NCBI GenBank assembly: GCA_017649855.1
Contig: JAGCGA010000032.1
Location: forward strand, 50,230 to 114,229
DNA length: 64,000 nucleotides
Source of the DNA: Bacteroidales bacterium
GTDB lineage: Bacteria > Bacteroidota > Bacteroidia > Bacteroidales > WCHB1-69
Reading direction: 5' to 3'
Part shown: piece after piece, positions 3,450 through 57,659 of the stretch
How positions within the stretch are numbered: position 1 is the first letter of the stretch
How the letters are laid out: the number at the start of each line of letters is the position of its first letter
Notes under the pieces: generated by a model
Databases searched by the model: none
Told to the model about the DNA's origin: nothing
The model's input: the letters and a program-made list of their open reading frames with translations, nothing else
Program-made: the position numbers and the translations under genes

Positions 3450-3536
3450 ATATTAATAGTGATTCAAAAGTGGTTGTATAATCGTCTATGGGGAGCATAA
3501 GTTTGCTTGCACAACAAAACCATTCGTCCCGTCAAA

Positions 3537-3575
3537 ACTAATAACTGTTAGCTAACAACTGCTAACGGTTAACTA
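3537..3575. repeat. GTTAR/CTAAC word tract abutting a stop codon
   Basis: The sequence is actaataactgttagctaacaactgctaacggttaactaag. It includes the 12-bp palindrome TGTTAGCTAACA (3546-3557) and GTTAAC. Confidence 0.85.
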
Positions 3576-4799
3576 AGCTTCGTCTATCATCTTCTTGAAG
3601 AAGGTGGCCCGTGCGGCTCCCTCGCCCGTGTTGAGGAGGACCAGTTCGCCATTGCGGATCTGTCCCTCTTCCAGGGCCTTGTAAAAGCCGGCGAAGCAGA
3701 CGATGGAGGCGGGTCCGAGGTAGATGCCGCGCTCGTCCTTGACAATCTTGCCGTAGTGTGCCAACTCGCTCTCCTTCACACGCAGGAAGGTGCCGCCGCT
3801 CTTGCGCACGATGGGTGCCACGATAGGGTACATGCCCGGGTTGCCGGCAGTGAGGATGGACACGAAGGTCTTGGGGTCTGCGATGATGGGGTAGTCCTTC
3901 TCATAACCTTCGGGGAATCCGGCCTCCACCGCTTTGGTCCAGGCCTGCACCATCGGGTCGCAGGTGTCTTGCTGGATCAGCAGCATGCGGGGCAGCTTGG
4001 TCTCCGGGAAGGTGGTCTGCAGATCACGGATGCCCTTGTCCAAGGCGATGGGACCCGTGCCACCCGCGACAGCCTGCATGTACACGTCGGGCATCTTGCC
4101 CAGCTGGCGCAAGTACTCGAACACCATGGTCTTCTTGGCTTCGACACGGATAGGATCGATGTTGCCCGTGGAGATGAGCACGTGGTTCTTTTCGTGGAAG
4201 TCGTTGGCCTCTTTCTTGGCGAATCCGTAGTTGCCGTCGCATACGATCACGGTCTGGCCGTAGGACTTGATGGCCTCCACGGTGTCCTCAATGGCATCGT
4301 GAGGCATGAAGACGGTGAACTTGATGCCGGCCTCGGCAAGATAGCGGGCGTAGGCGGTGGCCGTGTTGCCGGTCGAGGCTACACAGAACTCCTTCACACC
4401 GTTCTCCTTGAAGAGAGAGGCGGCCAAGGAGGCGGCAATGTCCTTGAAGGTGTTGCTGCCGCCGTTCAGGTCGTTGCGATAGACCATCACCTGGCAGTCG
4501 ATGCCGTATTTCTCTTTCGCTAACTTCTCCAAGAAATCCCACTCCTCGATGGGGATGGCTCCTTCGCCGAAGGAGACGATGTTCTTGGGGTCCATCACCG
4601 GCAGGAAGTCGAAATAATGGTAGAAGTTCTCGGGCTTGTGCTCCGGTTTGGTCAACTCCGTGATCTTGTGATAGTCTGCGGAATATACGACGTCAGCGCG
4701 CTTGCATCCGCATTTACACTGTTGGTTCTGAGAAAACCAAGTGGCAAAGTCGGGGATGACTTCGCCACATTGGGTACATTTCAGTTCGTATTTGTTCAT
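3573..4799 (-). CDS. PLP-dependent threonine-synthase-fold enzyme, cysteate synthase-like
   Basis: 408 aa. It has an N-terminal Cys cluster (CTQCGE...CKCGC) and an NTFKDIAAS PLP-lysine motif of fold-type II enzymes. Its size and context next to the alpha-oxoamine synthase also fit. Confidence 0.6.
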   Translation of the reverse strand: MNKYELKCTQCGEVIPDFATWFSQNQQCKCGCKRADVVYSADYHKITELTKPEHKPENFYHYFDFLPVMDPKNIVSFGEGAIPIEEWDFLEKLAKEKYGIDCQVMVYRNDLNGGSNTFKDIAASLAASLFKENGVKEFCVASTGNTATAYARYLAEAGIKFTVFMPHDAIEDTVEAIKSYGQTVIVCDGNYGFAKKEANDFHEKNHVLISTGNIDPIRVEAKKTMVFEYLRQLGKMPDVYMQAVAGGTGPIALDKGIRDLQTTFPETKLPRMLLIQQDTCDPMVQAWTKAVEAGFPEGYEKDYPIIADPKTFVSILTAGNPGMYPIVAPIVRKSGGTFLRVKESELAHYGKIVKDERGIYLGPASIVCFAGFYKALEEGQIRNGELVLLNTGEGAARATFFKKMIDEA

Positions 4800-4806
4800 G
4801 TAACTA

Positions 4807-4846
4807 TTATCTCTTAACGGTTATCTCTTAACGGTTATCTCTTAAC
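4807..4846. repeat. 3 x 14-bp tandem repeat TTATCTCTTAACGG
   Basis: Units lie at 4807-4820, 4821-4834 and 4835-4846 (the last truncated). They fill the 46-bp spacer between two co-directional biosynthetic genes. Confidence 0.9.
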
Positions 4847-11938: not shown

Positions 11939-12499
11939 ATGAGAAAAACACTGTTTGCTATTGTGGCACTGGCTCTATGCTTGATCTGCACATCTTGCCG
12001 TCATTCCCCAAAAGGATCTGAAAAAGGTGCCGGACAAGGGAATGTGGAGGCGGTGCCGCAGCCTGTCTTGGTTGCTCCAGACCTCGTCTTCTTTGAACTC
12101 CACGGGCCTGTGAAGAAGATGAAGGAGGACTTTCTCGTCTATGAATTTGACGAAAAGGGTAATCTGACCAAACATGATGGGGTATTTACCTTCTCCCGGG
12201 ACGAGAAAGGCCGAATCGTCAAGATGGACGGGCATGAGAATCACGTCACCTATCTGTGGGATGCTGAGCGACCAGTCGGTAGCGAGGCGGCCGCCGAGGG
12301 CATGACATTGTTGGAATCCTACACCTACGACGAGCGTGGCTTTGTCGTGAAGATCAAACACACGGAGGATGGCCAGGTGTCGTACGAGACGCTCACCTAT
12401 TCCGGTTTGGACACCTATGGCAACTGGACCCTAAGGAGCAGTGAAGGTTACAAATATGGCCGGGGTTCCGCGTCAAGGGAGATTGAATACTACGAGTAG
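11939..12499 (+). CDS. hypothetical lipoprotein
   Basis: 186 aa. It has a lipobox-like N-terminus (LALCLICTSC) and repeated DEKG-type turns. Confidence 0.6.
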   Translation: MRKTLFAIVALALCLICTSCRHSPKGSEKGAGQGNVEAVPQPVLVAPDLVFFELHGPVKKMKEDFLVYEFDEKGNLTKHDGVFTFSRDEKGRIVKMDGHENHVTYLWDAERPVGSEAAAEGMTLLESYTYDERGFVVKIKHTEDGQVSYETLTYSGLDTYGNWTLRSSEGYKYGRGSASREIEYYE

Positions 12500-14456: not shown

Positions 14457-14464
14457 ATCTCAAG

Positions 14465-14852
14465 TGGAGCCGGAGGGAGTCGAACCCTCGTCCAAACTAG
14501 CCGCAAGATTGCTTTCTACAAGTTTAGTCTTCGTTTGATTGTCGGCGACGGCATGGTACGAGACGGACCTGGCCGCCGCTTATCTCCTGAAGTTTCGCGC
14601 CTGCTGCGGAGCCAGCATTTGCTATCTGTCCTTTTATGACACTTCGGACCGGACGTTGGACGGAAGAACTTCCGGGGAAGCGCCCGCGGCAACAGACCTT
14701 GTCTGGGCGGCGGGATCCGCGGCCGTTAGGCTGCGAATGCATAAGAAGTTTCGCCGTTTATTGGCATCGAGAGTTGAATGTTAACGGAATTGGCTCACAA
14801 TTTCCGACCTGCTTACAATCCCCCGAACTTGCTGTCAAAACCAAACGACCCC
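14465..14852 (-). ncRNA. ssrA: transfer-messenger RNA (tmRNA)
   Basis: The 5' end GGGGUCGUUUGG pairs with the 3' end CCGGCUCCA, including a G3:U pair. A T-arm GGGUUCGACUCCC is present. The tag ORF GGC GAA ACU UCU UAU GCA UUC GCA GCC UAA (GETSYAFAA*) lies at 14726-14755. Confidence 0.9.
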
Positions 14853-15339: not shown

Positions 15340-15804
15340 TTATCTGGTTTCAGAGCTTTTAACGCTACTGCCCTCGTTCTCAGGAGCGGCTTCCAGCGGT
15401 TTGGCAGCCACATTGCCCTTGATGCTGAGGATGACGCGGTTGTTGGTGGCGTTGGACTCTACCGTGATGGTCTTGTTGATGGCACCGACACGGTTGGTGT
15501 TGTATTTCACCTTGATGACAGCCTTCTTTCCGGGAGGGATGGGATCCTTAGGCCAGGAAGGAACGGTGCAACCACAAGAGGAACGGCAGTTGGTCAGGAT
15601 AAGGTCGGCCTTGCCCGTGTTCTTGAAGACGAACTCGCATTCCCCATTGTCGCCTTGGGTGATGTTGCCATAGTCATGGACTAAATTCTCGAAGGTGATT
15701 TCGGGTTCTTTAACTTTCTTGTTGCTTTTCTCGGTGGCGGCATCTTGTGCCACGCCAGCGAAAACAAATGCTAGAAGCATGCAAACACTCAGTAATTTTT
15801 TCAT
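15340..15804 (-). CDS. DUF1573 domain secreted protein (paralog)
   Basis: 154 aa. Motif seen: FVFKNTGKADLILTNCRSSCGCTVPSW. Confidence 0.75.
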   Translation of the reverse strand: MKKLLSVCMLLAFVFAGVAQDAATEKSNKKVKEPEITFENLVHDYGNITQGDNGECEFVFKNTGKADLILTNCRSSCGCTVPSWPKDPIPPGKKAVIKVKYNTNRVGAINKTITVESNATNNRVILSIKGNVAAKPLEAAPENEGSSVKSSETR

Positions 15805-29700: not shown

Positions 29701-32700
29701 GCAATGACACCATCACGGGTCAGTTGGTTTCTACCTATACTGCTCCGCTGCTCGATCAATACACCTACACTGGTAGCTACACGCAGCCGTATGTGATCTT
29801 GCAACCTGAGCATCGTTTGAGCAACGTGACGCAATACTATTTCTATGCTAACGAGAATGATGCCACACCGATTCATACGACTACCACGGCTGCTCCGTAT
29901 TATACCACGCCTGCTCTGTATGACTCCGTGACCTATTGGGTGGCCGGAAAGACTCAGTCGAGCAACTGTACCACGAAGCGCAAACCGATTTACATCAATG
30001 TGTTCCGTCCGCAATATGACTTGATTACCAATGAGTTGGTGGCCCCGGTTTCCTATCAGTGTGGTCTTCCGAACAGTCCGCAGTTGCAGGTGAATGTGGG
30101 TAATACAGATACTACCTCTACCTCTGTGATCCCGGCCGGAACCTTCAACCTGACGGCCAACTTCACGGGTACCCATACGGCTACGGGCACCTCATCTGTC
30201 AACGTGCCTATCTCCTCGTTGCAAAATGCCACCATCACTTTTGCCAACGGTATCAACATTGGATCTGCCACTCAGAACAACTCTTATACCTATCATATTT
30301 ATAGTAATCCTGCAAGCTCTATGGGTGTGTATCGTTTGAATGATACCATCTCCGGACGCTTGTATATCCCTGCCAACCCGGTGGCTCCTCCGGCCTTGAC
30401 CTACACGGCCACGTATGGTATGCCTTATACCATCACCCCGAACAGCAATGTCTTGGATTACTATTATTTCTATCAGAACCAGAATGACAACACCCCGATA
30501 GGTCAAGGTAGTTCCTTCACGACCGATCCTGTTTACTCCTCTCCGATGGTATTATACTACAGCGGACGTATTGAGGATGATGACTTTGACACTTTGGTTC
30601 AAGTGGGTACGGGTACTTCCGGACAGTCGTATCCGTTCACCTTCACCAATGGTCACTCCTATGCCAAGGTTCTCTACTCCGCTTCTGAAGTAGGTCCTGC
30701 CGGCAGAATTGACACTTTGTTCTTCTCTGTGCAGACTGTCAACACCAGCGGTTCCTCCATCCCCGTGAAGATGTGGTTGAAGAACCATACGGATGATATG
30801 GATCAGATTGCCAATGCGGCCACCTCCATCAACTGGACCACCGAGACGAATGGTGCCACGTTGATCTTTGACGGTGAGTTGGAGTTTGCCACCCTCAACT
30901 GGTTCGCCATCCCTGTTCCTGGCGGTTTTGACTATAACGGAAAGGCCCTCTTCCTCTATGTGGAGCACAACTGTGGCGATGCCAGCTGTGTGACGAACAA
31001 TGGTATCAACCCGGTGCCGAAGTTCCACAACACCTCCATCCAGAAGAAAGTGCTCTACAAGGCTCAGAATACGGCCCTGACGGCTGCCTCTTCCTTCGCA
31101 TTGCAGAACAACCGCTGGAACACCCGCTTCAAGATGAGCTATACTTGTGAGTCTCCGAAGTCAACCATCACCATCAACACCAATGTTCCGCAACATGATG
31201 TGGGTGTGATCGCCATCAACACGCCGGTGACTCCGAGCAACACCTATACGGCCACCAATCCGGTACAAGTGGTAATCAAGAACTTCGGTTCTCAGGCTGC
31301 TTCAAACTTCCCGGTATCCTATCGCTTGGCCAACGGCACGCCTGTCAGCCAGAACTACACGAGTTCTTTGGCTGCCGGTGCCACCGCCACGGTGAACTTC
31401 ACCACCTCCTGCGATTTGAGTGCCATTTACTATGATACTCCTTTCCAGGCTTACACCGGCCTTACCAGCGATACCTATCATGGCAACGATACCACGACCA
31501 TCATGGTTCGCAAAGAGGATCCTTGTATCTCCCGTCCGTTGTCACTGGCTACTGGCGCCGACATTTCCAATGTGACCTTCGCTGGTATCAACAATGGTCC
31601 GGGTACGCCGTACACCAACTACACTCCTGCCGGTGACGGCCTCTATACTGACTATACCGGTACGGTTGCTGCTGGCGAGTTGGTGCAAGGACAGACCTAT
31701 CAGTTGGCTGTCACGCACTCCTTCACCGCTACGGCTACGGCTACGGTCTACAAGACGGTCTATGTGGACTACAACCGCAATGGAGTCTTCGAGACCAACG
31801 AGCAGATCTTCACTTCCGGTGCTGTGCCGGCGGGCCAAGCTAATGCCACCGCCAATGCTACCATTGTGGTGCCGACCACCACGGCCCTCGGTCTTACCCG
31901 CATGCGCGTTATCTGTGCTGCCGGCAACTATACCAGCGCTTGTGGTACCTATAACTACGCCGGTGAAACCGAAGACTATGCTATCCTCCTGTCTCCGCCA
32001 GTGACTACCGATATGGGTATTGTGAATTACATCCACCCGGTGGGCAATGTTTGTCAGGACAACAATGCAACTGTGCGCGTCAGAGTGAGAAACTATGGTT
32101 CACAAGCTCAGACGCTCTCCATCGACAATCCGTTGACCCTGACGGTGACGGTTACCGGTGCTGCCACAGGCACCTACACCACCAGCCTGACCTCAGGTAC
32201 TTACCAACCGTATCAGGATATTATCATGTCGATTGAAAATGTCAACTTGGGTGCTGCTGGAGATTATACCTTGAATGCCTCTATCGCTTATAGCGGCGAC
32301 CTCTATGTGTCCAACAACACCATGATTGGCAATGCCCATGTGGATGCTGGTGCTGCTGCTATCCCATATCTGGAGAACTTCGACTCCGGTACGGGTTCAG
32401 ATGGTGAGTACTTCTTTACGCCTGACTGGTCTGTGAATATGTCCGCTTCCAACTACAAGTGGGAAGTCTTCCAGGCTGCCAGCCCGAATGCCAACACCAA
32501 TGGCGGTCCTGCTCATGATCATACGCAGGCAGGTACCGTCTTTGAAGCCTTCGGTCGCTATGCATCCGTCCAAGGTGTCAGCGGTTCCAATAACGCTACC
32601 AAGTGGACCACCTTGACCTCTAAGTGTCTTAACCTGCACTATCAGAACGGCTATCCTGCTGAGCTCTCCTTCTACAAGTATTTCACAGGACCGAACAACT

Positions 32701-33557
32701 CTGACTTCCAGATGACGGTGGAGGTTGGCTCCGGTGGCAATTTCATTCCTTTGGATACCCTTACCAAAGCCGATGGCGAAACCGGCATTTGGTCCAGATA
32801 TGTCATCGCATTGACTGGTTACGATGAGGTGGGTCAGATCAGATTCAGAATGACTGGCCAAACCAACAAGATAGACCCGTCTATTGATGATGTTAATGTG
32901 ACCCCGGGTCTTCCGGATCTTGCTGTTGACAAGGTGGTTTATCCGTATGACTTCAACGATGCTGAGCATTCAGGCGAGTGTCTGTCCTTGACAGATACGG
33001 TACATCCTATTGTCCGTTTCTACAATAATGGTGACTCTCCGATCTCCGAGTTCGACGCTATGAGCGAGTTGGCCGTCGGTATCCTGAAAGATACGATTGT
33101 TGAGCATGTGGTGGCAACCATCATGCCGGGTGAGTATTATGACTACGAGTTTACACAGGGCTTTGTCATCCCGGAGAATGTTTACCACTGTCAGATTGCA
33201 GCCTTCGCGATTATTTACTTGGATAAAGATCTTACGAACAACACCAAGCGTGTGATTCCGTGTACTTCCTTGGATGTTCCGAATTACGAAGCTGAACAAG
33301 GTATCGTGCTGTATCAGAATATGCCGAACCCGGCCGAGAACCAGACTACCATCGTCTGCCTGCTTCCGGATTATGGCAAGGCAACCCTGCAGATCTACTC
33401 CGCTATGGGTCAGCTGCTCTACACCGATGCACAAGACGGCGTCTTCGGTCAGAACCAATTCGAAGTCAAGACTTCTGACTGGTCTGCAGGTGTGTACTAC
33501 TACACCTTGACATTCAAGAACGCTACGTTAACCAAGAAGATGGTTATTCAAAAATAA
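23718..33557 (+). CDS. giant T9SS-sorted cell-surface protein (3279 aa; adhesin-like, multi-domain)
   Basis: It starts with a signal peptide. A parallel beta-helix-like region lies at about 25170-26300. There are at least 8 CARDB-like module starts (D[LVM]A[VL]..i..P). Two ~200-aa paralogous modules are present (FVFTNGYSRGRIIYTADEIG / FTFTNGHSYAKVLYSASEVG). A GEVED-type motif YAGETEDYAI lies near 31962 and a MAM-like domain (GGPAHDHTQ) near 32360-32900. The C-terminal Por/T9SS sorting domain reads MPNPA...GVYYYTLTF. Confidence 0.9.
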   Translation: MKRILLTLVTLIAPFVIFAQIAQTSIVFEESFDQSTVQMTTTSNHDQTNGDWHKDNTLHVSGTSSFHTPVYPTSTNSSATTADIPLTDPTISNINHIYLEFDQICKVNNLDNATIYYAVAYGYNSDGDLNWSTWNQLVFTSTSPFYFGSGTYTGGKFNANCYSNWAANNNNTVPTNVWWHHEYFDLSSFIFQQGATHCKFQLRCNKISPSSSGTEVCAGWYIDNFKVILSNCELERPTIQLTAPIYVNKNNNMLNNIGPYTIHATLHDNDTLNLDSLYCKYKINSGAWTTCPNVINTNNLTASGHNVTAQWDFPTICYYDTIYYRIHVNDVHGSQAQLDTPMIAWHNQNNIQNNDCALDSTATFAPFPHCFITGDAQPVTLHFKNKSDATHSQSTGSPYQTALNVTLKVENENHVVTHTSSHSWTGSLCFDEPSTLSLGTFTPSHGYNYVTIYVNTRNGQVDGNHLNDTIRFRGYACDSLLHGDYTVGGTNPDFATMADVKAALTYCGVDGPTVFHFRPGTYQDFDFTENFIGQSATNTITFQGDNVNTVIITNNHTDAGTNLFGAVTLVNVNNFIFRNLTLQGKNNAVSRGVVIRGNGSTNITFDGCHITAYNTNSTANTSFAIGRSVAATTIPDTVTIQNCTITGGNYGVYYYGSNARKNVLNITGNTVRSCYRGIYTYYSTSTIANNHVSQVSMSSPQNFTGIYVDYVSGADINGNTIDSTYDVEYGIFFRYATLADFYIRNNHVKVGNSNFGIDIENSSSTTAITGYVYNNEVILYPVTAAASYAMQIKTSNLLKVINNSLYVKSDAPYSNTAALRIENNNNTYLDNNILINNVNCSDNTNYPLYLNANSTVTGAYNDFYSNSGIVGYKTVTRNTVAELENAVTTLTNSISEMPAIDNPTSSLLPTAFTGFECPRIAPVNADIRQLERSALTYMGAYAALIASVDASIVAMTNPALGSCPQNSYNVTVSIANKGAEALSFASHPATITIHSDSLNLHQTVTVNTGNIPVLGFLSQVVANNVNIPVNQMIDLTFIITTNGDNNHANDTLHTMFVMEAAIPDYEEVFSNGTQQTWTIEQLSGAGNWSFQEGTGVNPAIAPVYGTGRLFFNSKTFANATQSRAIMPVVQLANAVNPILEMWFAHDNVSNKTLEGVTVKISTDGGNTFTNLIPQGQTAALVKRYLNTATTPTWTLYTYDLSNYVSSGCVYIAFDAYSQAGNNINIDRIRLRSLFDNDLAVTNIYAQGETPAQLGMGNVISALVRNEGYQTQTNAKVYLTVTGATETYTDSLTIPSLASGAETLVTFPDHHYNVTEVKNVEVRSRNDQHNVNNAQNWRMVTTTNIANYADTSEVGLMTGDYNNVIRPCVRYKLAEPLCVTAVKYYYDNTYIANPSNGMRAFVSNAAGEIVATSALVDFESLQQGAWNIIPIENFALTNMSGEFYVGIEMLSNGDYLCSQIETPLRDSTFFYLANGVYTPQTFGRFMIGAQVDTPYVKDMALLEVLNPTTRCDLGHEHITVAITNNGFEDIPAGTIFHYTVNGLPTVTDTMQVALPSHATSEFAFPTIFDFTNQQVDIDSNYSIRVWVDRVTGDRLQFNDTIAVDIVSIGKSHTPIVQDTVNISYSTSGVLTAQLPSTIQTGEIGWYASTGYESWELLTYTNNFTTPVIYFDTTFYATANPGFIFDTIVGDGTLTGAQPFVFTNGYSRGRIIYTADEIGMHGPITSIGLYVTTASNATASAGIPIKLYMKTTDQNTFPTTANFNWNDDINGATLVYDGRIYFNQTGWFMIPLMHSFDFDADNLIVFTETNCADYCTGTGTQCNNCGAYVSGGASYPVFQMTTVPNGLVQHKNANTETMTGTYTNFARRLNMRFKIANLECGSEKIPVHIHVPDIPTYDVQTMELVSPTGGCAMAADEHIQVNVKNLLNTAIPANKVVVYATINGNTISHTVDEPFAPEELKTVTFTTPFNFTAPTANVTYNYTIYTNMPTETVVYRGNDTITGQLVSTYTAPLLDQYTYTGSYTQPYVILQPEHRLSNVTQYYFYANENDATPIHTTTTAAPYYTTPALYDSVTYWVAGKTQSSNCTTKRKPIYINVFRPQYDLITNELVAPVSYQCGLPNSPQLQVNVGNTDTTSTSVIPAGTFNLTANFTGTHTATGTSSVNVPISSLQNATITFANGINIGSATQNNSYTYHIYSNPASSMGVYRLNDTISGRLYIPANPVAPPALTYTATYGMPYTITPNSNVLDYYYFYQNQNDNTPIGQGSSFTTDPVYSSPMVLYYSGRIEDDDFDTLVQVGTGTSGQSYPFTFTNGHSYAKVLYSASEVGPAGRIDTLFFSVQTVNTSGSSIPVKMWLKNHTDDMDQIANAATSINWTTETNGATLIFDGELEFATLNWFAIPVPGGFDYNGKALFLYVEHNCGDASCVTNNGINPVPKFHNTSIQKKVLYKAQNTALTAASSFALQNNRWNTRFKMSYTCESPKSTITINTNVPQHDVGVIAINTPVTPSNTYTATNPVQVVIKNFGSQAASNFPVSYRLANGTPVSQNYTSSLAAGATATVNFTTSCDLSAIYYDTPFQAYTGLTSDTYHGNDTTTIMVRKEDPCISRPLSLATGADISNVTFAGINNGPGTPYTNYTPAGDGLYTDYTGTVAAGELVQGQTYQLAVTHSFTATATATVYKTVYVDYNRNGVFETNEQIFTSGAVPAGQANATANATIVVPTTTALGLTRMRVICAAGNYTSACGTYNYAGETEDYAILLSPPVTTDMGIVNYIHPVGNVCQDNNATVRVRVRNYGSQAQTLSIDNPLTLTVTVTGAATGTYTTSLTSGTYQPYQDIIMSIENVNLGAAGDYTLNASIAYSGDLYVSNNTMIGNAHVDAGAAAIPYLENFDSGTGSDGEYFFTPDWSVNMSASNYKWEVFQAASPNANTNGGPAHDHTQAGTVFEAFGRYASVQGVSGSNNATKWTTLTSKCLNLHYQNGYPAELSFYKYFTGPNNSDFQMTVEVGSGGNFIPLDTLTKADGETGIWSRYVIALTGYDEVGQIRFRMTGQTNKIDPSIDDVNVTPGLPDLAVDKVVYPYDFNDAEHSGECLSLTDTVHPIVRFYNNGDSPISEFDAMSELAVGILKDTIVEHVVATIMPGEYYDYEFTQGFVIPENVYHCQIAAFAIIYLDKDLTNNTKRVIPCTSLDVPNYEAEQGIVLYQNMPNPAENQTTIVCLLPDYGKATLQIYSAMGQLLYTDAQDGVFGQNQFEVKTSDWSAGVYYYTLTFKNATLTKKMVIQK

Positions 33558-34876: not shown

Positions 34877-34924
34877 TTAAACTTGTCAGTTAGGAGTTGT
34901 GGCAAATAGCGTCAATACTGAGGG

Positions 34925-34980
34925 TTAAGAAACTAAGAAATTAAGAAACTAAGAAATTAAGAAACTAAGAAGTTAAGAGA
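34925..34980. repeat. 7 x 8-bp tandem words (TTAAGAAA/CTAAGAAA)
   Basis: Read directly: ttaagaaa ctaagaaa ttaagaaa ctaagaaa ttaagaaa ctaagaag ttaagaga. The last unit forms an 8-bp stem, CTAAGAAG (34965-34972) with CTTCTTAG (34987-34994). Confidence 0.9.
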
Positions 34981-35048
34981 GTTTAGCTTCTTAGCTCCTT
35001 CATGGGTCACTCCAAAAGCCTTGGAACGAGAAATTGCGAGGTGATTGT

Positions 35049-35074
35049 CAAAGTCAAAGTTCAAAGTCAAAGTT
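35049..35074. repeat. CAAAGTY word tract (caaagtcaaagttcaaagtcaaagtt)
   Basis: Read directly. The same word string recurs at 43152, 55433, 55523 and 55606. Confidence 0.9.
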
Positions 35075-35087
35075 ATTTAGTTCGTCA

Positions 35088-35370: not shown

Positions 35371-35440
35371 CAGGGGGTCCCCGTTAATCGTCTTGCCGCT
35401 CGTTTTCTTTCAAACTGCGAGGATGCAGTCTGCTCCGTTT

Positions 35441-35473
35441 CGCTAACTCCCAACTGACAACTCTTAACTGCTC
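35441..35473. repeat. AGTTAR word tract with GGGAGTTAG head (minus sense)
   Basis: The minus-sense sequence is GAGCAGTTAAGAGTTGTCAGTTGGGAGTTAGCG, immediately 3' of the C69 peptidase stop. Confidence 0.8.
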
Positions 35474-37072
35474 TTACCACATTCCATCAAACACGGTCCA
35501 GAGGTGGTCGCCGAGTCTCCAGGCAGTCTCCACAGCGGTGTTGCCGCATTCGTTGGTGAACTTGGTGAGCAGTTTGATGGCTTCCGTTCTCTGTCCGTTT
35601 CTTAACAGCCGCAGCGCCTCGGTCTCCACCGCGTAGTGCTCTTGGATGAACTCTTTCTCCAGGGGCTCCCACGTCTGGTTGATGACCATGTGCATGTCAC
35701 CCCACCGTTGGCAGGCGATGGTGCCCACGCGGTTGAAGGCCCACCAGGCGGCCTCCTTGCTGAAGCCGGTCTCGCGGCCGTCGGTCTTGTAGGTCGATGG
35801 CAGGTCGGTGACGTTGGCATAGATGGGCACATGGATGGAGGATGCCACGTTGTCGAGAGCGAACCAGCACAAGGCGCCCACCTCATCGGGCAGGTCGGCG
35901 CGGCACTGGATGATGGTACCGTAGACGGTGAAGTGCACGGCGATGTTGCGCTCGCCCAGCTCGTTCCAGCCACCGTTGATCCTGTGGAGCTTCAGCTCGT
36001 CGCTCTTCATGAAGGGGTTAGCCATGGGCGAGATGACCTGTTTGCCATCCTTGTCGGCCACGGTCAGGGTCTTGCGCATATCGTAAGGAGTGCCTTCGTA
36101 GTAGTCTTTGAAGACGCTCATCATCTTCTCGATGGTCACCAAGGAGTCGGGTTTCACGGAGAAGGGGTAGTTCTCGGCGTTGGGGTCGAGGTGCAGGGAG
36201 GGGGCGAGGAGGTCGAAGACACGCCACTCTCTGCGGCGGCAGGCGATCATGGTACGGCTCTGCGGCGCGTAGGCGTAGGCAAAGCGGAAGGTCTCCTTGC
36301 CATCCCACCAGCCGTTCTCCTTGGCCAACGAATAGACATTGTCGGAGGCCATGAAGTAGTCCTTGTCTTTGAGGTTGATCTCGCGGATGGTGGAGGCGTT
36401 GGCGTTGACGGCCACGTGGTCGTCGGGCACGCGCTGGGCGGCCCACACGGCACCCACCTTGCCCTTGCCGGGCCCTAAGATCTCGAGATGCCAGACCTCG
36501 TTCTTGTCGGCGATGGTCAGGCACTCGCCGGCATCTATCCAGCCGTACTCTTTCAGCAGGACGCCTGCCGTGCGGATGGCCTCGCGCGCGGTGGTGCAGC
36601 GCTGCAACAACAGCATGCAGAGGCGCTGGCAGTCGATAAGGCCGCTGTCAGACTTCAGCTCTGCGCGTCCGCCGAAGGTCGATTCGCCGATGGCTAACTG
36701 ATGCTCGTTGACACACGGGTAGGCGGTGTTCAGGAACTGGTAGGTGTGCGCTGCCTGCGGGATGTTCCCCACGGGGATGTCGGCGTAACGGGCCATCTTG
36801 CCGGGCTCGTTGGGAGCCCACACACGCTTGTAGAGGGTCTGCCGCTCGCCCTGGCCATGGTCCTTGGCCGGCTCCACTAGGATGTTGGTGCGCGACCGGT
36901 GACTGTCGTCGGTGTGGGAGGTCATCACCGAACCGTCAGCTGAGGCCTTCTTGCCAATGGTGATACTGGTGCACTCCATGCCCTCCGTGATGGGGTCCAC
37001 AATCTGCGCCGACGACATGTAAATGCCGATGGCCATAAAAAAAACAATGATTAAAATCTTTTTCATATGCAT
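35474..37072 (-). CDS. C69 family dipeptidase (secreted)
   Basis: 532 aa with a signal peptide, followed by CTSITIGKKASADGSVMTSHTDD (N-terminal nucleophile Cys). Confidence 0.85.
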   Translation of the reverse strand: MHMKKILIIVFFMAIGIYMSSAQIVDPITEGMECTSITIGKKASADGSVMTSHTDDSHRSRTNILVEPAKDHGQGERQTLYKRVWAPNEPGKMARYADIPVGNIPQAAHTYQFLNTAYPCVNEHQLAIGESTFGGRAELKSDSGLIDCQRLCMLLLQRCTTAREAIRTAGVLLKEYGWIDAGECLTIADKNEVWHLEILGPGKGKVGAVWAAQRVPDDHVAVNANASTIREINLKDKDYFMASDNVYSLAKENGWWDGKETFRFAYAYAPQSRTMIACRRREWRVFDLLAPSLHLDPNAENYPFSVKPDSLVTIEKMMSVFKDYYEGTPYDMRKTLTVADKDGKQVISPMANPFMKSDELKLHRINGGWNELGERNIAVHFTVYGTIIQCRADLPDEVGALCWFALDNVASSIHVPIYANVTDLPSTYKTDGRETGFSKEAAWWAFNRVGTIACQRWGDMHMVINQTWEPLEKEFIQEHYAVETEALRLLRNGQRTEAIKLLTKFTNECGNTAVETAWRLGDHLWTVFDGMW

Positions 37073-37101
37073 AATATTTCAAATTTTCTACAGACATGAA
37101 A

Positions 37102-37214
37102 CCCCTACGGGGCTGCTCAAGGAATAACTATCATCTATTATCTATTAGCTATTATCTATCATCTGTTATTCTACCCAGCTCTTGCCCCTGCGGGGCTGCT
37201 CAAGGAATAACTAT
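37102..37214. repeat. two copies of a 30-bp module CCCCT(A/G)CGGGGCTGCTCAAGGAATAACTAT, 83 bp apart
   Basis: Copies at 37102-37131 and 37185-37214 match at 29 of 30 positions. Each carries a CCCC-N3-GGGG hairpin and is followed by a period-7/8 word tract. Confidence 0.9.
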
Positions 37215-37251
37215 TAACTATTAACTTTTAACTCTTAACTCTAACTCCCCC

Positions 37252-39717
37252 TCATTCCTCTCCTCCATCCTCATTCTCTCCGCTCCGGCTCTTGGACTCC
37301 AGTTCCATCTTGCCAAAACGGAAGGTGATGCCTGCCGAGATGAAGCGGCTGTTGCGCTTGGTTGTCGAGGTAGAGATGAGGTACGGGTTGTTATTCTGGC
37401 TGGTTGTCTTGTTCCAGTTGAAGATGTCTTTCACGTCGAGATGCACCGAGATCTTGCGGTCGAGGAAACTGGCGCGGAGGCCGGCGTCGATGGAGTAGCG
37501 TGGCTTGGTGGTGGTGAACAGGGAGATGCTCTTGGAGCGGTAGTTCGCGGAGGCGAAGACCTCCAGCACCTTCCACAGCTTGGCCCAGTAGTTGATGCGG
37601 AAGCTGTAACCCAGGTTGGAGAACTCGCGAGGGTCGCTCTCGTTGCGGAACCGGTAGAGCGAGTGGTCGTAGTAAACGTTGCCGTAGAAACGGATGCTCA
37701 TGAAGGCCTTGAGCCGGTAGGTGACGTTGACCTCGGCGCCGGTGTTGAGCGACTTGCCCGCGTTGACGGGCATGGAGAAGGAGACGATGCGTCCGAAGAA
37801 GTCGCTGTATGCCACATCGCTGAGCGAGGAGATCTGCCTGTCGCTGTTGCGGAAGTAGGCGGTGACGCCCACAGAGCCGAACTTCTTGAAGAACTTGGTC
37901 CAGCCGGCCTCTACCATGTTGGTGTAGGAGGGCAGCAGGAGCGGGTTGCCCGTGGAGTAGCTCTCTTCACCGTAGTTGATGAAGGTCGAGAGTTGCGAGG
38001 CCGAGGGGGTCCGCACGCGCCGCGTGTAGCTGAGCTTCAGGTTGTGCATGCTCTTGGTGCGGTAGGTCAGGTGCAGGGAGGGGTATAGGTTCCAGTAGGT
38101 CTTGCTGACGTTGTCCTTGGGTGAGTTGAGCAGGTCGTAGCGGTAGTTGTTCACTTCCGAGCGGAGGCCCGCCTTGATGGTGAAGCCGCCGAACTTATGC
38201 TGGATGGTCACGTACTGGCCGGAGCCGAAGTTTTGGTTGCGGGAATCGACAAAGCGGATGGAGTCCAGGACAAACAGATCGTCAGACAGATAGACGAGCG
38301 TATCTTCACGGGAGGTGTTTCCGCCTCTTCCGTAGTTGCCGCTGATGCCCATCGAGATCTCCCCGTTCTTGTGATAGGGGATGGTATAGTCCACACTCGC
38401 ATTGAAACTATAGTTGAATAACTTGACAGTGTCAAAGCAGTACTTGTCCAGATAGTCTTGTGTGAGATAGTCGCGGAAGCTGTGCGATTTGGTGCTGCCG
38501 GCGTTGAAGTTGGTGTTCAGGCTGGCGTCTATCTGGTGTCCCTCCTGGTTGAACTTGTGGCGGAACCAGATGCCGCCGTAGCCGTTGGCACTTAACGATC
38601 TGCTCTCCCCATCATAACCATAGTCGAAAAGTTCTGCTTCGCGATCATCTTCGGGGTACATCTCATAGCGCATCTGGTGTGCAGTGCTGAAACTCCATCG
38701 ACGGTTAGGATGGGTGCCGAGCCAGAAACTCAGCGAGTTGGAGCTGTCGATGGTGTAGGAGCCGTTGAAATGGATGTTGCCATTGATATTGCGGTTCCGG
38801 TTGAAGGTGGTGTCTATCTGGATGCTGGCCGTGTCAAGATCCTTGTTCAGACGGGTCAGATGGCTGTGACTGTTGGTGCGGTTGGCAGCATAGCTGGCGT
38901 TGACGTAGAGGCTGAGGGACAGCTTCTTGTTGGCCCAGACGTATGAAAACCAGGGTGACACGTTGGGGCGTGAGGAGCCGTTGATGCCGAAGCTGATGAA
39001 CTGGTTCTTCTGGATGGCGGCGGTGGTGACGATGTTGATGATGCCGCCGTCGGTGTTGGCGCCGTACTTGGCTGAGGGGTTGGTGATGACCTCAATGCGT
39101 TCGATGCTGTTGGCGGGCATCTGCTGGATGAACTCCTTGAGGGTCTCCGCGGTGAGGTTGGAGGGCTTGTCGTTGAGCCATATCTCCACGGAAGAGACGC
39201 CGCGCAGGGTGATGTTGCCTTCGATGTCAACCTCCACGCCCGGGGCATTCTGCAGGGCGTCGGCGGCGGTGCCCGTCTGCACCATCGGGTCCTCCGACAC
39301 ATTATAGAGCGTCTTCTCACCCTCCATCATGTAGACTGGCTTCTCGGCGGTGACACTCACCTCGCCCAGCATGGTCGCGGCCTTGTGCAGCCAGATGTTC
39401 CCTAGCTGGATGTTGCGGTCACTGCCTCCGACAGTCACGGGGACAGTCTTCAGCTCGTAGCCCACCAGCATGACTTTCAAAAAATAGTTGCCCGCGGGGA
39501 TGTCCTCCAGCAGAAAACGACCGTTGGTTTCGGAGTAGGTGACGGCCACATTGCGCATGGAAGAGTCCGTGGTGGTGAGGCCTACCGTGGCGTAAAAGAT
39601 CTTCTGCCCATTGGCGGTGTCGCAGACCACTCCTTGCAGGCGGTAGTTCTGAGCCGACAAAGTCTGAAGGAGTCCTGCCAGCAGGGCGAATATAAGGTAT
39701 ATCCTAAATTTCTTCAT
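37252..39717 (-). CDS. TonB-dependent receptor with N-terminal carboxypeptidase-regulatory-like domain
   Basis: 821 aa with a signal peptide. It has a CarboxypepD_reg-like start (YRLQGVVCD), a plug motif (ALQNAPGVEVD) and a C-terminal beta-barrel ending ITFRFG. Confidence 0.85.
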   Translation of the reverse strand: MKKFRIYLIFALLAGLLQTLSAQNYRLQGVVCDTANGQKIFYATVGLTTTDSSMRNVAVTYSETNGRFLLEDIPAGNYFLKVMLVGYELKTVPVTVGGSDRNIQLGNIWLHKAATMLGEVSVTAEKPVYMMEGEKTLYNVSEDPMVQTGTAADALQNAPGVEVDIEGNITLRGVSSVEIWLNDKPSNLTAETLKEFIQQMPANSIERIEVITNPSAKYGANTDGGIINIVTTAAIQKNQFISFGINGSSRPNVSPWFSYVWANKKLSLSLYVNASYAANRTNSHSHLTRLNKDLDTASIQIDTTFNRNRNINGNIHFNGSYTIDSSNSLSFWLGTHPNRRWSFSTAHQMRYEMYPEDDREAELFDYGYDGESRSLSANGYGGIWFRHKFNQEGHQIDASLNTNFNAGSTKSHSFRDYLTQDYLDKYCFDTVKLFNYSFNASVDYTIPYHKNGEISMGISGNYGRGGNTSREDTLVYLSDDLFVLDSIRFVDSRNQNFGSGQYVTIQHKFGGFTIKAGLRSEVNNYRYDLLNSPKDNVSKTYWNLYPSLHLTYRTKSMHNLKLSYTRRVRTPSASQLSTFINYGEESYSTGNPLLLPSYTNMVEAGWTKFFKKFGSVGVTAYFRNSDRQISSLSDVAYSDFFGRIVSFSMPVNAGKSLNTGAEVNVTYRLKAFMSIRFYGNVYYDHSLYRFRNESDPREFSNLGYSFRINYWAKLWKVLEVFASANYRSKSISLFTTTKPRYSIDAGLRASFLDRKISVHLDVKDIFNWNKTTSQNNNPYLISTSTTKRNSRFISAGITFRFGKMELESKSRSGENEDGGEE

Positions 39718-39786: not shown

Positions 39787-39867
39787 GCGGATGTGGCGTA
39801 ATGGTAGCCGCGCCAGACTTAGGATCTGGTGGCGAGAGCCGTGGGGGTTCGAGTCCCCCCATCCGCA
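39787..39867 (+). tRNA. tRNA-Leu (anticodon UAG)
   Basis: Manual cloverleaf. The acceptor stem is GCGGATG/CATCCGC. The anticodon stem CCAGA/TCTGG has loop CTTAGGA. There is a long variable arm (GGC-GAGA-GCC) and a T-arm GGGGG-TTCGAGT-CCCCC. CCA is not encoded. Confidence 0.9.
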
Positions 39868-43145: not shown

Positions 43146-43151
43146 CCAACC

Positions 43152-43166
43152 CAAAGTCAAAGTTCA
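43152..43166. repeat. CAAAGTCAAAGTTCA word motif copy
   Basis: Read directly in the 41-bp spacer after the methyltransferase stop. Confidence 0.8.
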
Positions 43167-43186
43167 GATTATAGTTTTCTCTGCTC

Positions 43187-54333: not shown

Positions 54334-55065
54334 TTAGTGCTGACTGGCACGCACCGCACGCACAGGATATCCCTCATAGCGGTAGCTGGCGGAGGCGTAC
54401 ATGCCCTCGCGACCCGAGCTGAATCCGAAGGCCCACGCGAGCCCCGGGTAGTCCAGGTACAGCGCACTCGACCAGTAGAAGCCGAACTCACCCGTGCCAT
54501 CGATACTCGGGCCGAAGGGGGCGCCGGCAGCGGGCAGGAAGAGGCTCTTACCATTGGATCCGGTCAGAAGGTGGCCGTTAACCCCATTTAGAACAATCCA
54601 AATGCTGGTAGTGTAGTCTATCAACTCTTCCCACTCGTTTTTAGTCGGTGTGCGGGCTCCACCGCCAAGGTTAGCCGTGGCGGCATCGTCAGAGGCCTGA
54701 AGGATGGTCTGGTTGTCTGTAAAGCCGTTAAGACCGTATGAAGCCTTATTGCAGTATTTAGTGAGCTTACCGTCGTCATTGCCGAATGCGTAGGTGCTCC
54801 AGCTATAGACATTCTTCGGGGTGGTCTCGCCCCAAGCGTAATAATTACCATAGTCCTCGAGGGCGCTGGCACCCACATTCCGATCTGCCCACAAGAGACC
54901 GCTCGGCAACCCGAGGTCAACCCAAACAACAGAAGACGAGTTGCCGCCATTATTGCCACCATTGTTGCCGCCATTGTTGTCGCCATTGTTGTCTTCTCTG
55001 TCGCAGGACTGTAGCCCCACACCTAACAGAATTGCAACCATAAAAAATAAAACTGATCTTTTCAT
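54334..55065 (-). CDS. lipoprotein with lectin-like FISUMP/DUF1566-type domain (DGR-target-like C-terminus)
   Basis: 243 aa with a lipobox (GLQSC) and an (NNGG)n linker. Motifs seen: GLPSGLLWADRNVGA, YYAWGE, PTKNEWEEL, LPAAG and GFYWSS. It ends YEGYPVRAVRASQH. Confidence 0.7.
   Translation of the reverse strand: MKRSVLFFMVAILLGVGLQSCDREDNNGDNNGGNNGGNNGGNSSSVVWVDLGLPSGLLWADRNVGASALEDYGNYYAWGETTPKNVYSWSTYAFGNDDGKLTKYCNKASYGLNGFTDNQTILQASDDAATANLGGGARTPTKNEWEELIDYTTSIWIVLNGVNGHLLTGSNGKSLFLPAAGAPFGPSIDGTGEFGFYWSSALYLDYPGLAWAFGFSSGREGMYASASYRYEGYPVRAVRASQH
54943..54990. repeat. 4 x 12-bp coding tandem repeat (GCCNCCATTRTT), encoding the NNGG linker
   Basis: Read directly: gccgccattatt gccaccattgtt gccgccattgtt gtcgccattgtt. 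Confidence 0.9.
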
Positions 55066-55260
55066 CGCAAAATATGTCCGAGGACCTCGGTTTTCTCTTA
55101 ATCATGACGTTCTCATACCCTGCGAGGTCCTTTGAACAGGATATGGGAAAACATCGCTGCAAATATATAAATATTTTACAAATGTACAAATATTTTATTG
55201 ATTATATTGTTTATTTATTAATAAAGTGAAATTTTTTGTGAGAATAACCGAAGTTTCGTT

Positions 55261-55268
55261 TATTTTTG
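55261..55268 (+). promoter_or_regulatory. orphan -7 type promoter box TATTTTTG
   Basis: Exact TAnnTTTG with no annotated gene downstream. A GC-rich ~100-nt segment follows, then the repeat tracts. Confidence 0.35.
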
Positions 55269-55370
55269 CAGGCATGTCGGAGGTGTGCGGGGGACGACAC
55301 GATGGGCGAGCGGCCGTTTGCGGATAACGCGTGCAGATGGGCGGAATCCCCGTGAATGGCGGGGGCGATT

Positions 55371-55620
55371 GGGAGTTAGATAATAGTTAATAGTTATGGG
55401 TAGTTCGGGGCTAATGGCTAATAGCAAACGGCCAAAGTTCAAAGTTCAATGTCAAGGTTAGGAGGTTAAAAGGTTAATAGGTTAAGCGGTTAGAAGGTTA
55501 ACGGGTTAATGGGTTAATGGGTTCAAAGTCAAAGTTCAAAGTTCAATCTCAAGGTCATGGTTTTGACGGCCAACAGCTAACAGCTAACGGCTAACAGCTA
55601 ACAGCCAAAGTTCAAAGTTT
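55371..55620. repeat. composite array of short-period word repeats
   Basis: The array starts with the head GGGAGTTAG at 55371. AGGTTAnn repeats 8 times (period 8) at 55455-55518. TAACAGC repeats 5 times (period 7) at 55571-55605. CAAAGTY tracts start at 55433, 55523 and 55606. A 26-bp direct repeat CAAAGTTCAAAGTTCAAT(G/C)TCAAGGT occurs at 55433 and 55530. Confidence 0.9.
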
Positions 55621-55625
55621 TTTTA

Positions 55626-55633
55626 TATTTTTG
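55626..55633 (+). promoter_or_regulatory. -7 type promoter box TATTTTTG
   Basis: Exact TAnnTTTG upstream of the SPFH gene. Confidence 0.45.
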
Positions 55634-55712
55634 CCGATTCTTCGATTATTCCGTGCATGATGATGGGGGAATTCAAAATCATATGGAAATCTATAACAAA
55701 AAAAATCATATC

Positions 55713-56510
55713 ATGGCATACGCACAACAATCTACCAGCAAATTTTTCAAATGGGTGCGCTACTCCTTTTTGGGCTTGGTGGTGCTCATCACCATCTTCA
55801 GCTCATTCTATACGGTGAAGTCCACCGAGCGTGGCGTGCTCTCCACCTTCGGCAAGATCCAGGACAAGGCGGTCGGCGACGGCTTGCACATCAAGATCCC
55901 CTTCATCCAGCATGTACAGAAGGTCAACGTGCAACAGAAGAAGTTCGATGGCACCGAGAACTCCTACACGCGAGACGTGCAGACATCCGAGGTCACCTAC
56001 ACCATCAACTACGACCTGGTGACCGACAATGTCAGCTTGCTGATCAAGAAGGTGGGCAATGACTACCACACGCGCATCGTGGAACCCTACATCCGCAGTG
56101 CCGTCAAGAGCAGCTTCGGTAACTTCAACGCCACCCAGATTGTGGAGAACCGCGACAAGGTGCGGGCCCAGATCGAGACGAAGCTGCGCGAGACCCTCGA
56201 CAGCCGGTATTTCACCAATATCCATTTCCAGCTGGTCAACATCGACTTTGACGACCAGTTCGAGACAGCCATCAAGGAAAAACAGGTGGCCGAGCAGAAC
56301 GCCCTGAAGGCGAAGAATGTGACCATCCAGATCGAGGAGCAGGCCAAGCAGACCAAAATCAAGGCTGAAGCCGAGGCGGAAGCCATCCGCATCAAGGCCA
56401 ACGCTTTGGAGAAGAATCCCAAGTTGGTGGAATATGAGGCGGTGCAGAAGTGGGACGGCAAGCTGCCCGAATACACGGGCGGCGCGGTGCCGTTTATCAA
56501 TATCAAGTAA
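55713..56510 (+). CDS. SPFH/band 7 (prohibitin family) membrane protein
   Basis: I chose the start at MAYAQQSTSKFFKW (ATG 55713, A-rich upstream). The track's GTG at 55653 and the ATG at 55683 are alternatives. It has a TM helix, then an SPFH core and an A/E/K-rich coiled coil. Confidence 0.75.
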   Translation: MAYAQQSTSKFFKWVRYSFLGLVVLITIFSSFYTVKSTERGVLSTFGKIQDKAVGDGLHIKIPFIQHVQKVNVQQKKFDGTENSYTRDVQTSEVTYTINYDLVTDNVSLLIKKVGNDYHTRIVEPYIRSAVKSSFGNFNATQIVENRDKVRAQIETKLRETLDSRYFTNIHFQLVNIDFDDQFETAIKEKQVAEQNALKAKNVTIQIEEQAKQTKIKAEAEAEAIRIKANALEKNPKLVEYEAVQKWDGKLPEYTGGAVPFINIK

Positions 56511-57651: not shown

Positions 57652-57659
57652 CCAACGAC

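Follow-up and report, generated by a model that had tools for sequence, protein, structure and literature searches.

In the 64,000-nt stretch of DNA analysed here (the window; contig JAGCGA010000032.1 of an uncultured rumen Bacteroidales, assembly GCA_017649855.1), positions 55371-55620 hold a 250-bp intergenic patchwork of imperfect tandem arrays of 7-8-nt words, and this block is probably non-coding simple-sequence spacer DNA, generated by slippage and filtered by selection. Flanked by an orphan Bacteroidetes-type promoter (P1) on one side and that of a Band_7/SPFH gene (P2) on the other, it occupies part of a divergent intergenic region of 617 bp. If it acts at all, it probably does so as a length-variable spacer or insulator between divergent promoters, and it is a transcribed leader only if P1 fires. 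The phenomenon itself is already known; it is the host lineage that is new for it.

The slippage account is preferred because the predominance of heptamers in the lineage, indels of whole units, the birth of an array from a seed, patchy presence and the diversity of words all fit it. Because of their polarity, stop enrichment and conserved cores, the surviving arrays are nevertheless not a random sample. Arrays would arise by replication slippage or unequal exchange, together with a few segmental duplications, and would build up in whatever intergenic space is free, to be trimmed by selection at functional boundaries. Which words survive would be set by selection against harm: against open frames running on past a slippage-prone gene end, leaving stop-bearing words with little C near gene ends; against start codons of the form NTG and TTTG promoter motifs on strands that lead into a gene, which would be kept G-poor; and against strong RNA structure, with base composition keeping the RNA weakly structured. 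No word-specific reader would be required. The present evidence cannot distinguish such a harm filter from a positive function at the RNA level, e.g. Rho loading or ribosome landing.

Composition of the tract

An earlier note on this DNA, made from the letters alone, had listed the elements of the block: its first letters at 55371, GGGAGTTAG, then AGTTAAT-type words, period-8 units, CAAAGTY words, five TAACAGC-type units and a 26-bp direct repeat with copies at 55433 and 55530. All are recovered at their positions by Tandem Repeats Finder (TRF) and a repeat finder, the array calls in the tract being drawn from these two programs and from direct reading of 54800-56200. The make-up is thus composite, with AGTTAAT-type words, GGTTARnn (period 8), CAAAGTY and AACAGCT (period 7) combined with higher-order direct repeats (Table 1). 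TRF assigns period 7 and 2.9 copies to TAGTTAA-type words at 55377-55396, within a left edge that is similar to the reverse complement of window positions 37204-37251, themselves directly 3′ of a stop codon. Towards the other end, at 55572-55605, it finds 4.9 copies of AACAGCT with 92% matches. CAAAGT occurs seven times in three clusters (55433/55440, 55524/55530/55537 and 55606/55613). The two copies of the 26-bp repeat (55433-55458 and 55530-55555) are 96% identical, those of a 37-nt repeat (55410-55446 and 55583-55619) 89%, and the higher-order repeats inside the tract are all direct, none being inverted.

In the octamer array GGTTA occurs eight times at exact 8-nt spacing, the core being invariant in eight consecutive units and the 2-3-nt spacer variable. 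Mismatches by unit position number 6, 4, 0, 0, 0, 0, 1 and 2, with 10 of the 13 in two adjacent positions, a clustering with P about 0.001 under uniform mutation.

That stop-bearing words repeated with periods of 7 or 8 nt rotate stops through the frames, as the earlier note had it, is borne out: all six reading frames are closed, with 9, 7 and 7 stops on the + strand and 9, 7 and 11 on the - strand, and the longest open stretch is 30 codons. The 23 stops on the + strand are as expected from base composition (19.1 ± 3.0 predicted), and the 27 on the - strand are in excess of the predicted 11.8 ± 2.6. Base counts on the + strand (A 84, G 66, T 66, C 34) are low in C, and the strand is polarized, with a G-rich left part and a C-richer right part of AACAGCT words adjoining Band_7. 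A G-quadruplex motif (G3+N1-7 x4) was not found on either strand of the tract, and a scan for sigma-70 promoters and terminators yielded no site inside it.

The class in related rumen loci

Class statistics refer to 1.4 Mb of DNA, comprising the window and 80 related rumen Bacteroidales loci from metagenome-assembled genomes (MAGs), all treated by one pipeline; the nearest species representative is the sheep-rumen MAG RGIG7025 (locus L002), at 98% amino-acid identity. Among arrays of at least three copies, period 7 predominates (151, against 69 of period 6 and 40 of period 8), and 131 of the period-7 arrays are intergenic as against 14 in open reading frames (ORFs), with periods 6 and 9 mostly in ORFs. 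Placement relative to genes and strands, which the earlier note had thought worth tabulating, is far from random. Array density is 12.8 per 10 kb in intergenic DNA and 0.8 in ORFs, a 16-fold difference, with 4.8% of intergenic bases falling in arrays; where dinucleotide shuffles of intergenic DNA give 5-8 arrays of period 5-9, the real sequence has 169 (about 25-fold). Convergent intergenic regions are the densest in arrays, at 2.37 per kb, and divergent ones the sparsest, at 0.84 per kb; of 187 distances from array to stop codon, 57 do not exceed 5 nt.

With a median array length of 33 nt and a 90th percentile of 56 nt, the 250-bp composite is at the large end of the class, where it has comparable company at L011 (275 bp) and L010 (165 bp). 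Tracts are present in related genomes, a point on which the earlier note had made the interest of the block depend. Presence is patchy, from 15-22% of intergenic bases in some loci to none in 27 of the 80. Repeat units without a stop on either strand number 35, against 50.9 ± 4.6 when the letters of units are shuffled, so that across the class units bear a stop on one strand or both more often than shuffling predicts. The 127 heptamer arrays comprise 74 distinct canonical words, on which ground one shared motif or reader was rejected, and clustering of mismatches by unit position across the class is weak (0.68 against 0.61 expected, p = 0.003). Arrays are not less structured than their own shuffles, their low structure stemming from composition and not from word order.

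Of arrays with a recognizable -7 box, 34 are located upstream of the box and three within the 5′ untranslated region (UTR), and 14 of 35 promoter-associated arrays end 6-27 nt ahead of the box. The tract ends 5 nt from the -7 box of P2, and since class arrays mostly lie upstream of the box, its position is typical. One word family, (C/T)TAATTTGC, has a TTTG -33 motif and is found in several species directly upstream of TAnnTTTG -7 boxes (L020 3083-3128, L026 2794-2825, L071 14720-14741 and L013 around 15625-15660); judged by such sequences, some arrays may supply promoter -33 elements. Individual relatives also have arrays capable of forming G-quadruplexes (CAGGGGT/TAGGGGT; L013 10838-10886 and L076 1304-1373) and one resembling a telomere repeat (TTAAGGG x7; L010 1718-1783).

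Polarity

Whichever way the nearest gene is oriented, G is abundant and C scarce on the strand that one reads moving out from it. Counted on the + strand, G outnumbers C in 56 of the arrays nearer the left gene and C outnumbers G in 16; for those nearer the right gene the figures are 23 and 54 (p = 4.8e-9), and the rule is also seen in solitary arrays (p = 3e-4). After a stop codon, G exceeds C in the sense of the gene in 58 arrays against 21 (p = 4e-5), and in 43 against 8 of those that touch the stop. At most 40 nt upstream of a start codon, C exceeds G in the sense of the gene in 25 against 5, and G amounts to only 6%. The tract follows the rule, G on the left and C on the right, though its divergent context is the rarer one.

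Amplification of local composition was considered and rejected as the source of the skew: surrounding non-array composition, with skews of -0.04 and -0.12, does not predict polarity. Stop codons account for the excess of G over C only partly, as with stops masked there are still 551 G to 442 C. The C-rich strand has fewer ATG triplets than expected (24, against 44.9 ± 6.3). Given this polarity rule, some orientation-aware force is needed.

Turnover and array birth

A second, near-identical contig (L001, an ENA scaffold with two single-nucleotide polymorphisms in 6.8 kb) has the identical tract at the same length, and homologous tracts are present in two independent assemblies, L002 and L082, so that the tract is not the assembly quirk that the earlier note had considered. 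Between the window and L002, where non-array flanks differ by 2.3%, the tract has indels of 16, 15 and 7 nt, i.e. whole units, and its substitutions are concentrated in variable unit positions, with GGTTA cores intact and spacers different; the octamer array of L002 has four fewer units. The promoter-proximal AACRGCY array differs in unit content among the window, L002 and L082, while its right boundary and P2 are identical in all three. The earlier note had proposed comparing tract length between strains, and among these relatives length does differ, by whole units.

In L082 everything to the left of the promoter-proximal array is replaced, with homology to the window stopping exactly at the left edge of the array. 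This locus came from a right-flank pattern scan of metagenomes that gave two matches, L082, which is informative, and L083, an unrelated chance match; a left-flank pattern scan of metagenomes gave none. An IS3-family element is also present in L082 (790-2400), itself a close relative of the Band_7 locus. It comprises orfA and an orfB that encodes an integrase core, is bounded by terminal inverted repeats of some 110 bp, and is separated from the promoter-proximal array by 25 nt.

A spacer elsewhere in the window is pertinent to origin. From the stop codon of a ROK gene to the start of an ABC transporter gene (57652-57659) there are 8 nt, TAGCCAACGAC, the stop counted. The corresponding L002 spacer (11939-11985) starts from the same TAG stop but consists of an array of six heptamer units. 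Read from the two sequences, the ROK-ABC spacer is a direct view of an array growing from, or collapsing to, a single heptamer seed that contains a stop codon. The orthologous position downstream of Band_7 varies by species, and has arrays of unrelated words, inverted arrays, canonical terminators with a GC hairpin and T-run, or nothing.

Weighing the alternatives

Several points weigh against slippage with filtering. Polarity, stop excess and an invariant GGTTA core with a variable spacer would not be expected from neutral slippage alone, so that some selection or biased mechanism is needed, and which one it is we only infer. Identical words recur at non-orthologous loci, in 74 pairs against 11.3 ± 3.2 for letter-shuffled units (a count that includes orthologous arrays and inverted partners). 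The imperfection of the units, with 76% matches in the octamer array, means that present-day slippage may be low, and the two near-identical contigs have no length difference. Three lineages retain the promoter-proximal array, which persists even where the DNA upstream has been replaced; this could reflect function rather than linkage.

A possible, if unlikely, alternative is that the arrays are a lineage-wide cis-acting code acting on RNA or transcription, with G-rich, C-poor, stop-laden tails after stops and G-poor, C/A-rich tracts leading into genes. Inward tracts would then be unstructured ribosome-loading leaders, in Bacteroidia that do without Shine-Dalgarno sequences, or rut-like Rho-loading sites that halt read-in or antisense transcription, and the tract at 55371-55620 would insulate two divergent genes and/or form a P1-driven leader of Band_7. 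The opposite skews after stops and before starts speak for such a code, as do a polarity that exceeds or opposes surrounding composition and holds for solitary arrays, and the scarcity of ATG on the C-rich strand. In Bacteroidetes, weakly structured mRNA and adenines upstream, rather than Shine-Dalgarno sequences, are what initiation depends on (PMC6847099); of just seven bipartite promoter matches in the window, P1 is one and is aimed into the tract; and the analogous Xanthomonas repeats are mostly transcribed (PMC4692102). However, the preponderance of arrays upstream of the -7 box, shared by the tract, would leave the latter untranscribed from P2. Absence of arrays from 27 of the 80 loci and at orthologous positions in close relatives marks them as dispensable, the median array is short for a Rho-loading site, and the vocabulary is very diverse.

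It is distinctly doubtful that the oriented arrays amount to a code for insulation, genome-wide and based on composition, by which these Bacteroidales, independent of Shine-Dalgarno sequences, would pad every gene boundary, the tract being a double insulator between divergent promoters. Outgoing RNA would be G-rich, C-poor and filled with stops, and incoming RNA G-poor, C/A-rich and unstructured, so that inward transcripts would meet Rho loading or a ribosome landing free of signals, without inward start codons or TTTG promoters, and slippage would keep regenerating the padding.

It is improbable that the tract is a contingency locus or rheostat in which slippage in unit number switches or tunes Band_7 or the divergent gene, in the manner of the hmw1A heptamers of Haemophilus influenzae, for which heptamer-repeat control is established (PMC8262952, PMC12721329). 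Whole-unit differences between relatives are in keeping with it, as are the position of the tract between two promoters, its end so close to the -7 box of P2, and the 14 of 35 promoter-associated arrays that end shortly ahead of such a box. Counting against it are imperfect units in the octamer array, which suppress slippage, and the equal length of the two near-identical contigs; unit matches in the tract range over 76-92%, and relatives at the species level do differ. The identity of the right boundary and the P2 core in three lineages means that unit changes leave promoter spacing unaltered. The tract lies neither in an ORF nor between promoter hexamers, and in a 5′ UTR only if P1 is active. 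The flanking and array-associated genes are of housekeeping types and not surface antigens, as is also the case for the Xanthomonas and Nostoc repeats (PMC4692102), and the phenomenon is genome-wide, not bound to particular genes.

A row of binding sites, in which a putative DNA- or RNA-binding protein (a nucleoid protein, a regulator or an RNA binder of OB-fold/CSD type) reads GGTTA every 8 nt, is decidedly improbable. The invariant cores and variable spacers of the eight units suggest it, as does the survival of intact cores among different spacers in L002, and mismatch clustering across the class is slightly above expectation; for TAACTGA repeats, the suggested binders are S1, Csp and CsrA (PMC4679880). 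Yet the diversity of heptamer words leaves no common core, with an 8-bp period neighbouring sites face different sides of the DNA helix, roughly half the units suffice in L002, and duplication of multi-unit blocks also yields clustered mismatches.

The earlier note had further suggested that the GGTTAR half of the block and the CTAAC half are partly reverse-complementary, so that a transcript could fold into a long imperfect hairpin; on this reading the transcript or the DNA would form a terminator, stabilizer or cruciform. This is highly improbable, and the hairpin reading is wrong for this tract. For + strand RNA, 168 of 200 shuffles reach a fold that is at least equally good (z = +0.95), for - strand RNA z is -0.15, and the duplex between the GGTTAR and CTAAC arrays, at -19.0 kcal/mol, is no better than that of shuffled arrays (-17.9 ± 3.3 kcal/mol). 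With, in addition, no terminator-like site inside it, the tract was rejected as an intrinsic terminator or long hairpin, and its higher-order repeats are exclusively direct. An Rfam 15 scan of the window at gathering thresholds returned only a tmRNA and a tRNA, both away from the tract, and a permissive scan of 55050-55720 gave best E values of 0.42 and 1.2, far under gathering scores.

What lends the hairpin idea some substance is found elsewhere in the lineage, where inversion of the same heptamer word yields intergenic hairpins of 30-40 bp, often around a small GC-rich central stem (L044 14062-14160, L054 7791-7882, L035 17283-17381, L068 4043-4121 and L069 2279-2378). That of L035 has -63.5 kcal/mol, and other examples are L044/L054, L050/L051, L027/L030 and L068/L069; two orthologous pairs have one compensatory base-pair change each. 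At some loci inverted-array hairpins occupy the place of the canonical terminators of other species. This suggests, from sequence comparison, that some arrays in the lineage are used as terminator-like stems, the tract at 55371-55620 not being among them.

Scarcely credible is that the tract is an artefact of metagenome assembly, or foreign or mobile DNA such as a MITE (miniature inverted-repeat transposable element) or an eroded array of clustered regularly interspaced short palindromic repeats (CRISPR), for though the source is a metagenome scaffold and an IS3-family element is close to the array in L082, the same or homologous tracts are present in independent assemblies from different studies, imperfect units make k-mers across the tract unique, and there are no terminal inverted repeats, no repeat-spacer architecture and no similarity to insertion sequence (IS) ends. 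A CRISPR array as such was rejected, the 6-8-nt units being head-to-tail without spacers, and the flanking genes that were examined show no cas domains.

Local setting and other tracts of the window

For promoters, a scan for the Bacteroidetes-specific TTTG/TAnnTTTG motifs replaced the sigma-70 scan. In the 5.6 kb of the window that are intergenic there are 24 copies of TAnnTTTG, against 11 in 58 kb of ORF DNA, and six of the seven bipartite matches (TTTG-N17-23-TAnnTTTG) are intergenic. Judging from its motif and direction, P1 could drive a long leader or a small RNA through the repeat tract, and there is no conserved ORF behind it. The segment between P1 and the tract, 55272-55370, has no significant fold and no conserved ORF, its mini-ORFs not being kept in L002. 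Among the 80 loci it has a homologue only in L001 and L002, and it does not resemble the ends of the IS3-like element of L082. For Band_7, translation probably starts at the ATG at 55714, a start kept in relatives. Inside the leftward gene is an in-frame 12-nt tandem repeat, GTTGCCGCCATT, of 4.3 copies at 54940-54991, of which the L002 orthologue has one additional unit, so that this neighbouring gene is length-polymorphic too.

Counting 55371-55620, the window has at least nine tracts of this class; at least eight others share the vocabulary, all intergenic, and most of the tracts begin at, or a few bases from, a stop codon. At 37115-37251 each of the two arrays is preceded by a copy of a duplicated GC hairpin module, CCCCTRCGGGGCTGCTCAAGGAATAAC (37095-37251), the copies being 83 bp apart and followed by different heptamer arrays, CTATTAT after one and AACTATT/AACTCTT after the next. 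The genes flanking the module encode an outer-membrane receptor and a peptidase C69. Its standing as a dispersed, repetitive extragenic palindromic (REP)-like repeat (37108/37191) was rejected, as it is a local duplication only, absent elsewhere in the window and from the loci. Other features of the window are a tmRNA gene (14462-14852, - strand, 120.5 bits), a tRNA gene (39787-39867, + strand) and a single 9.8-kb ORF of 3279 aa (23718-33557, + strand).

Table 1. Components of the repeat tract, its surroundings and other tracts of the class (window coordinates)
Feature	Position	Strand	Remarks
Left flanking gene	54334..55065	-	weak Lcl_C hit; internal in-frame 12-nt repeat
Bipartite promoter-like site of leftward gene 54334..55065	55160..55190	-	TTTG/TAnnTTTG scan
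P1, orphan bipartite promoter-like site TTTG-N22-TATTTTTG	55235..55268	+	points into tract; conserved in L002
GC-rich unique segment between P1 and tract, about 100 nt	55272..55370	+	restricted to this species
Tract left edge	55371..55409	+	GGGAGTTAG, then AGTTAAT-type heptamer words; nearly C-free
A1, GCTAAYRG words	55410..55432	+	within copy 1 of 37-nt higher-order repeat 55410-55446
B1, CAAAGTT words	55433..55458	+	copy 1 of 26-bp higher-order repeat
C, octamer array GGTTARnn	55454..55528	+	9.4 copies, 76% matches, consensus AAGGTTAA
B2, CAAAGTY words	55521..55555	+	includes copy 2 of 26-bp repeat (55530-55555)
A2, heptamer array AACAGCT/AACGGCT	55566..55605	+	C>G on + strand; adjoins promoter P2
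B3, CAAAGTT x2	55606..55619	+	abuts T-run and P2 -7 box
P2, Bacteroidetes-type -7 box TATTTTTG of Band_7 gene	55625..55632	+	read from sequence; conserved in L002 and L082
Right flanking gene, Band_7/SPFH	55683..56510	+	start probably ATG at 55714
GTTAG/GTTAT words	3536..3572	-	run from stop codon of gene 3573..4799
TTATCTCTTAACGG x2.9	4800..4845	-	occupies entire spacer between two co-directional genes
TTAAGAAA/CTAAGAAA x6.8 after NamZ stop codon (34920-34985), with GTCAAAGT words at 35047-35075	34920..35075		TRF
AGTTAAG/AGTTGNC-type words (- strand reading)	35440..35473	-	run from stop codon of gene 35474..37072
CTATTAT x6 (37115-37170) and AACTATT/AACTCTT x5.9 (37200-37251)	37115..37251	-	begin 4 nt past stop codon of gene 37252..39717
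CAAAGTCAAAGTTCAG	43150..43170	+	same vocabulary; 41-nt spacer between two + strand genes

Significance and relation to known systems

Heptamer arrays were flagged in 2007 as the most over-represented long bacterial simple-sequence repeats (Mrazek et al., as summarised in PMC4679880), and an accepted function is still wanting. The lineage offers a natural experiment in this regard, with dozens of words, a polarity rule, the visible birth of an array from a stop-codon seed, and inverted arrays in place of terminator hairpins at some loci. The most useful results are the lineage-wide polarity rule and the example of array birth, which make the question of heptamer-repeat function testable. If polarity reflects selection on transcription or translation boundaries, it bears on how genes are delimited in Bacteroidia, which ignore Shine-Dalgarno sequences. 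If only filtered slippage is involved, the tracts should not be taken for genes, RNAs or CRISPRs, are useful as strain-typing markers and are likely to be points at which rumen MAG assemblies from short reads break.

That nothing known explains the block, as the earlier note put it, was an overstatement. No gene, Rfam family or CRISPR logic fits, but a described class does, that of intergenic heptameric simple-sequence repeats (PMC4692102, PMC4679880), though one without an established function. Of what characterizes long simple-sequence repeats (LSSRs) and the repeats of Xanthomonas and Nostoc, tandem units of 5-11 nt above chance, dominance of period 7, placement relative to stops and strands (at the level of the class) and unit variation between relatives are all found here. 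In the work of Mrazek et al. 2007, as summarised in PMC4679880, heptanucleotides are the commonest LSSR class and polymerase slippage is the proposed origin. The likeness extends to tandem units of 5-11 nt, most commonly 7, to sporadic phylogeny and to the keeping of unit lengths that are not multiples of three out of coding DNA (PMC4679880, PMC4692102). As far as these summaries go, LSSRs are reported mainly in Burkholderia, Xanthomonas, cyanobacteria and actinobacteria, whereas here they are in an uncultured rumen Bacteroidales, with many words in one composite tract.

The closest parallel in placement is with the GGGAATC and GGGGAYT repeats of Xanthomonas and Nostoc, which are about 90% intergenic and for which a function was not found (Rehm et al., PMC4692102). 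They are nearest the stop of the upstream ORF, often overlapping it, with the G-rich strand as the coding strand, the relation being reversed upstream of ORFs, where the non-coding strand is rich in G. They are scarce between divergent genes, some are inverted pairs, they have core and variable positions, and close relatives have extensive variation in their length and sequence (PMC4692102). Intergenic placement, strand rule, divergent depletion, inverted pairs, core and variable positions and length variation are all also features of the present lineage. The difference is that there it is essentially one G-quadruplex-forming word, while the tract is without such a motif and in the rarer divergent context, and the lineage has at least 74 words. 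Several tandem heptamers, the short tandemly repeated repetitive (STRR) heptanucleotides described by Mazel and co-workers in 1990, are reportedly dispersed in the non-coding DNA of Calothrix and Nostoc. The likeness would be in having several heptamers dispersed in the non-coding DNA of one lineage, the difference in their being cyanobacterial and a small fixed set of words.

Direct repeats of TAACTGA are known from Beggiatoaceae, cyanobacteria and five Bacteroidetes, with indels in 7-nt steps between strains and a mechanism that is not known (MacGregor, PMC4679880); in Gramella, Aequorivita and Elizabethkingia they belong to larger assemblages of mixed heptamers (PMC4679880). Stop-codon-bearing intergenic heptamers, 7-nt-step indels and mixed assemblages are common to both situations. 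The word itself has no tandem sets in the window or in any of the loci, and in Cand. Maribeggiatoa the repeats are just upstream of start codons, whereas here arrays mostly hug stops or precede promoters.

With the heptamers of H. influenzae hmw1A and hmw2A the tract shares 7-nt units between promoter(s) and gene, in variable number (PMC8262952, PMC12721329). Those are perfect, hypermutable within a population and in the 5′ UTR of an adhesin gene, whereas the tract is imperfect, precedes the proximal promoter of a gene of housekeeping type and is one of hundreds in its lineage.

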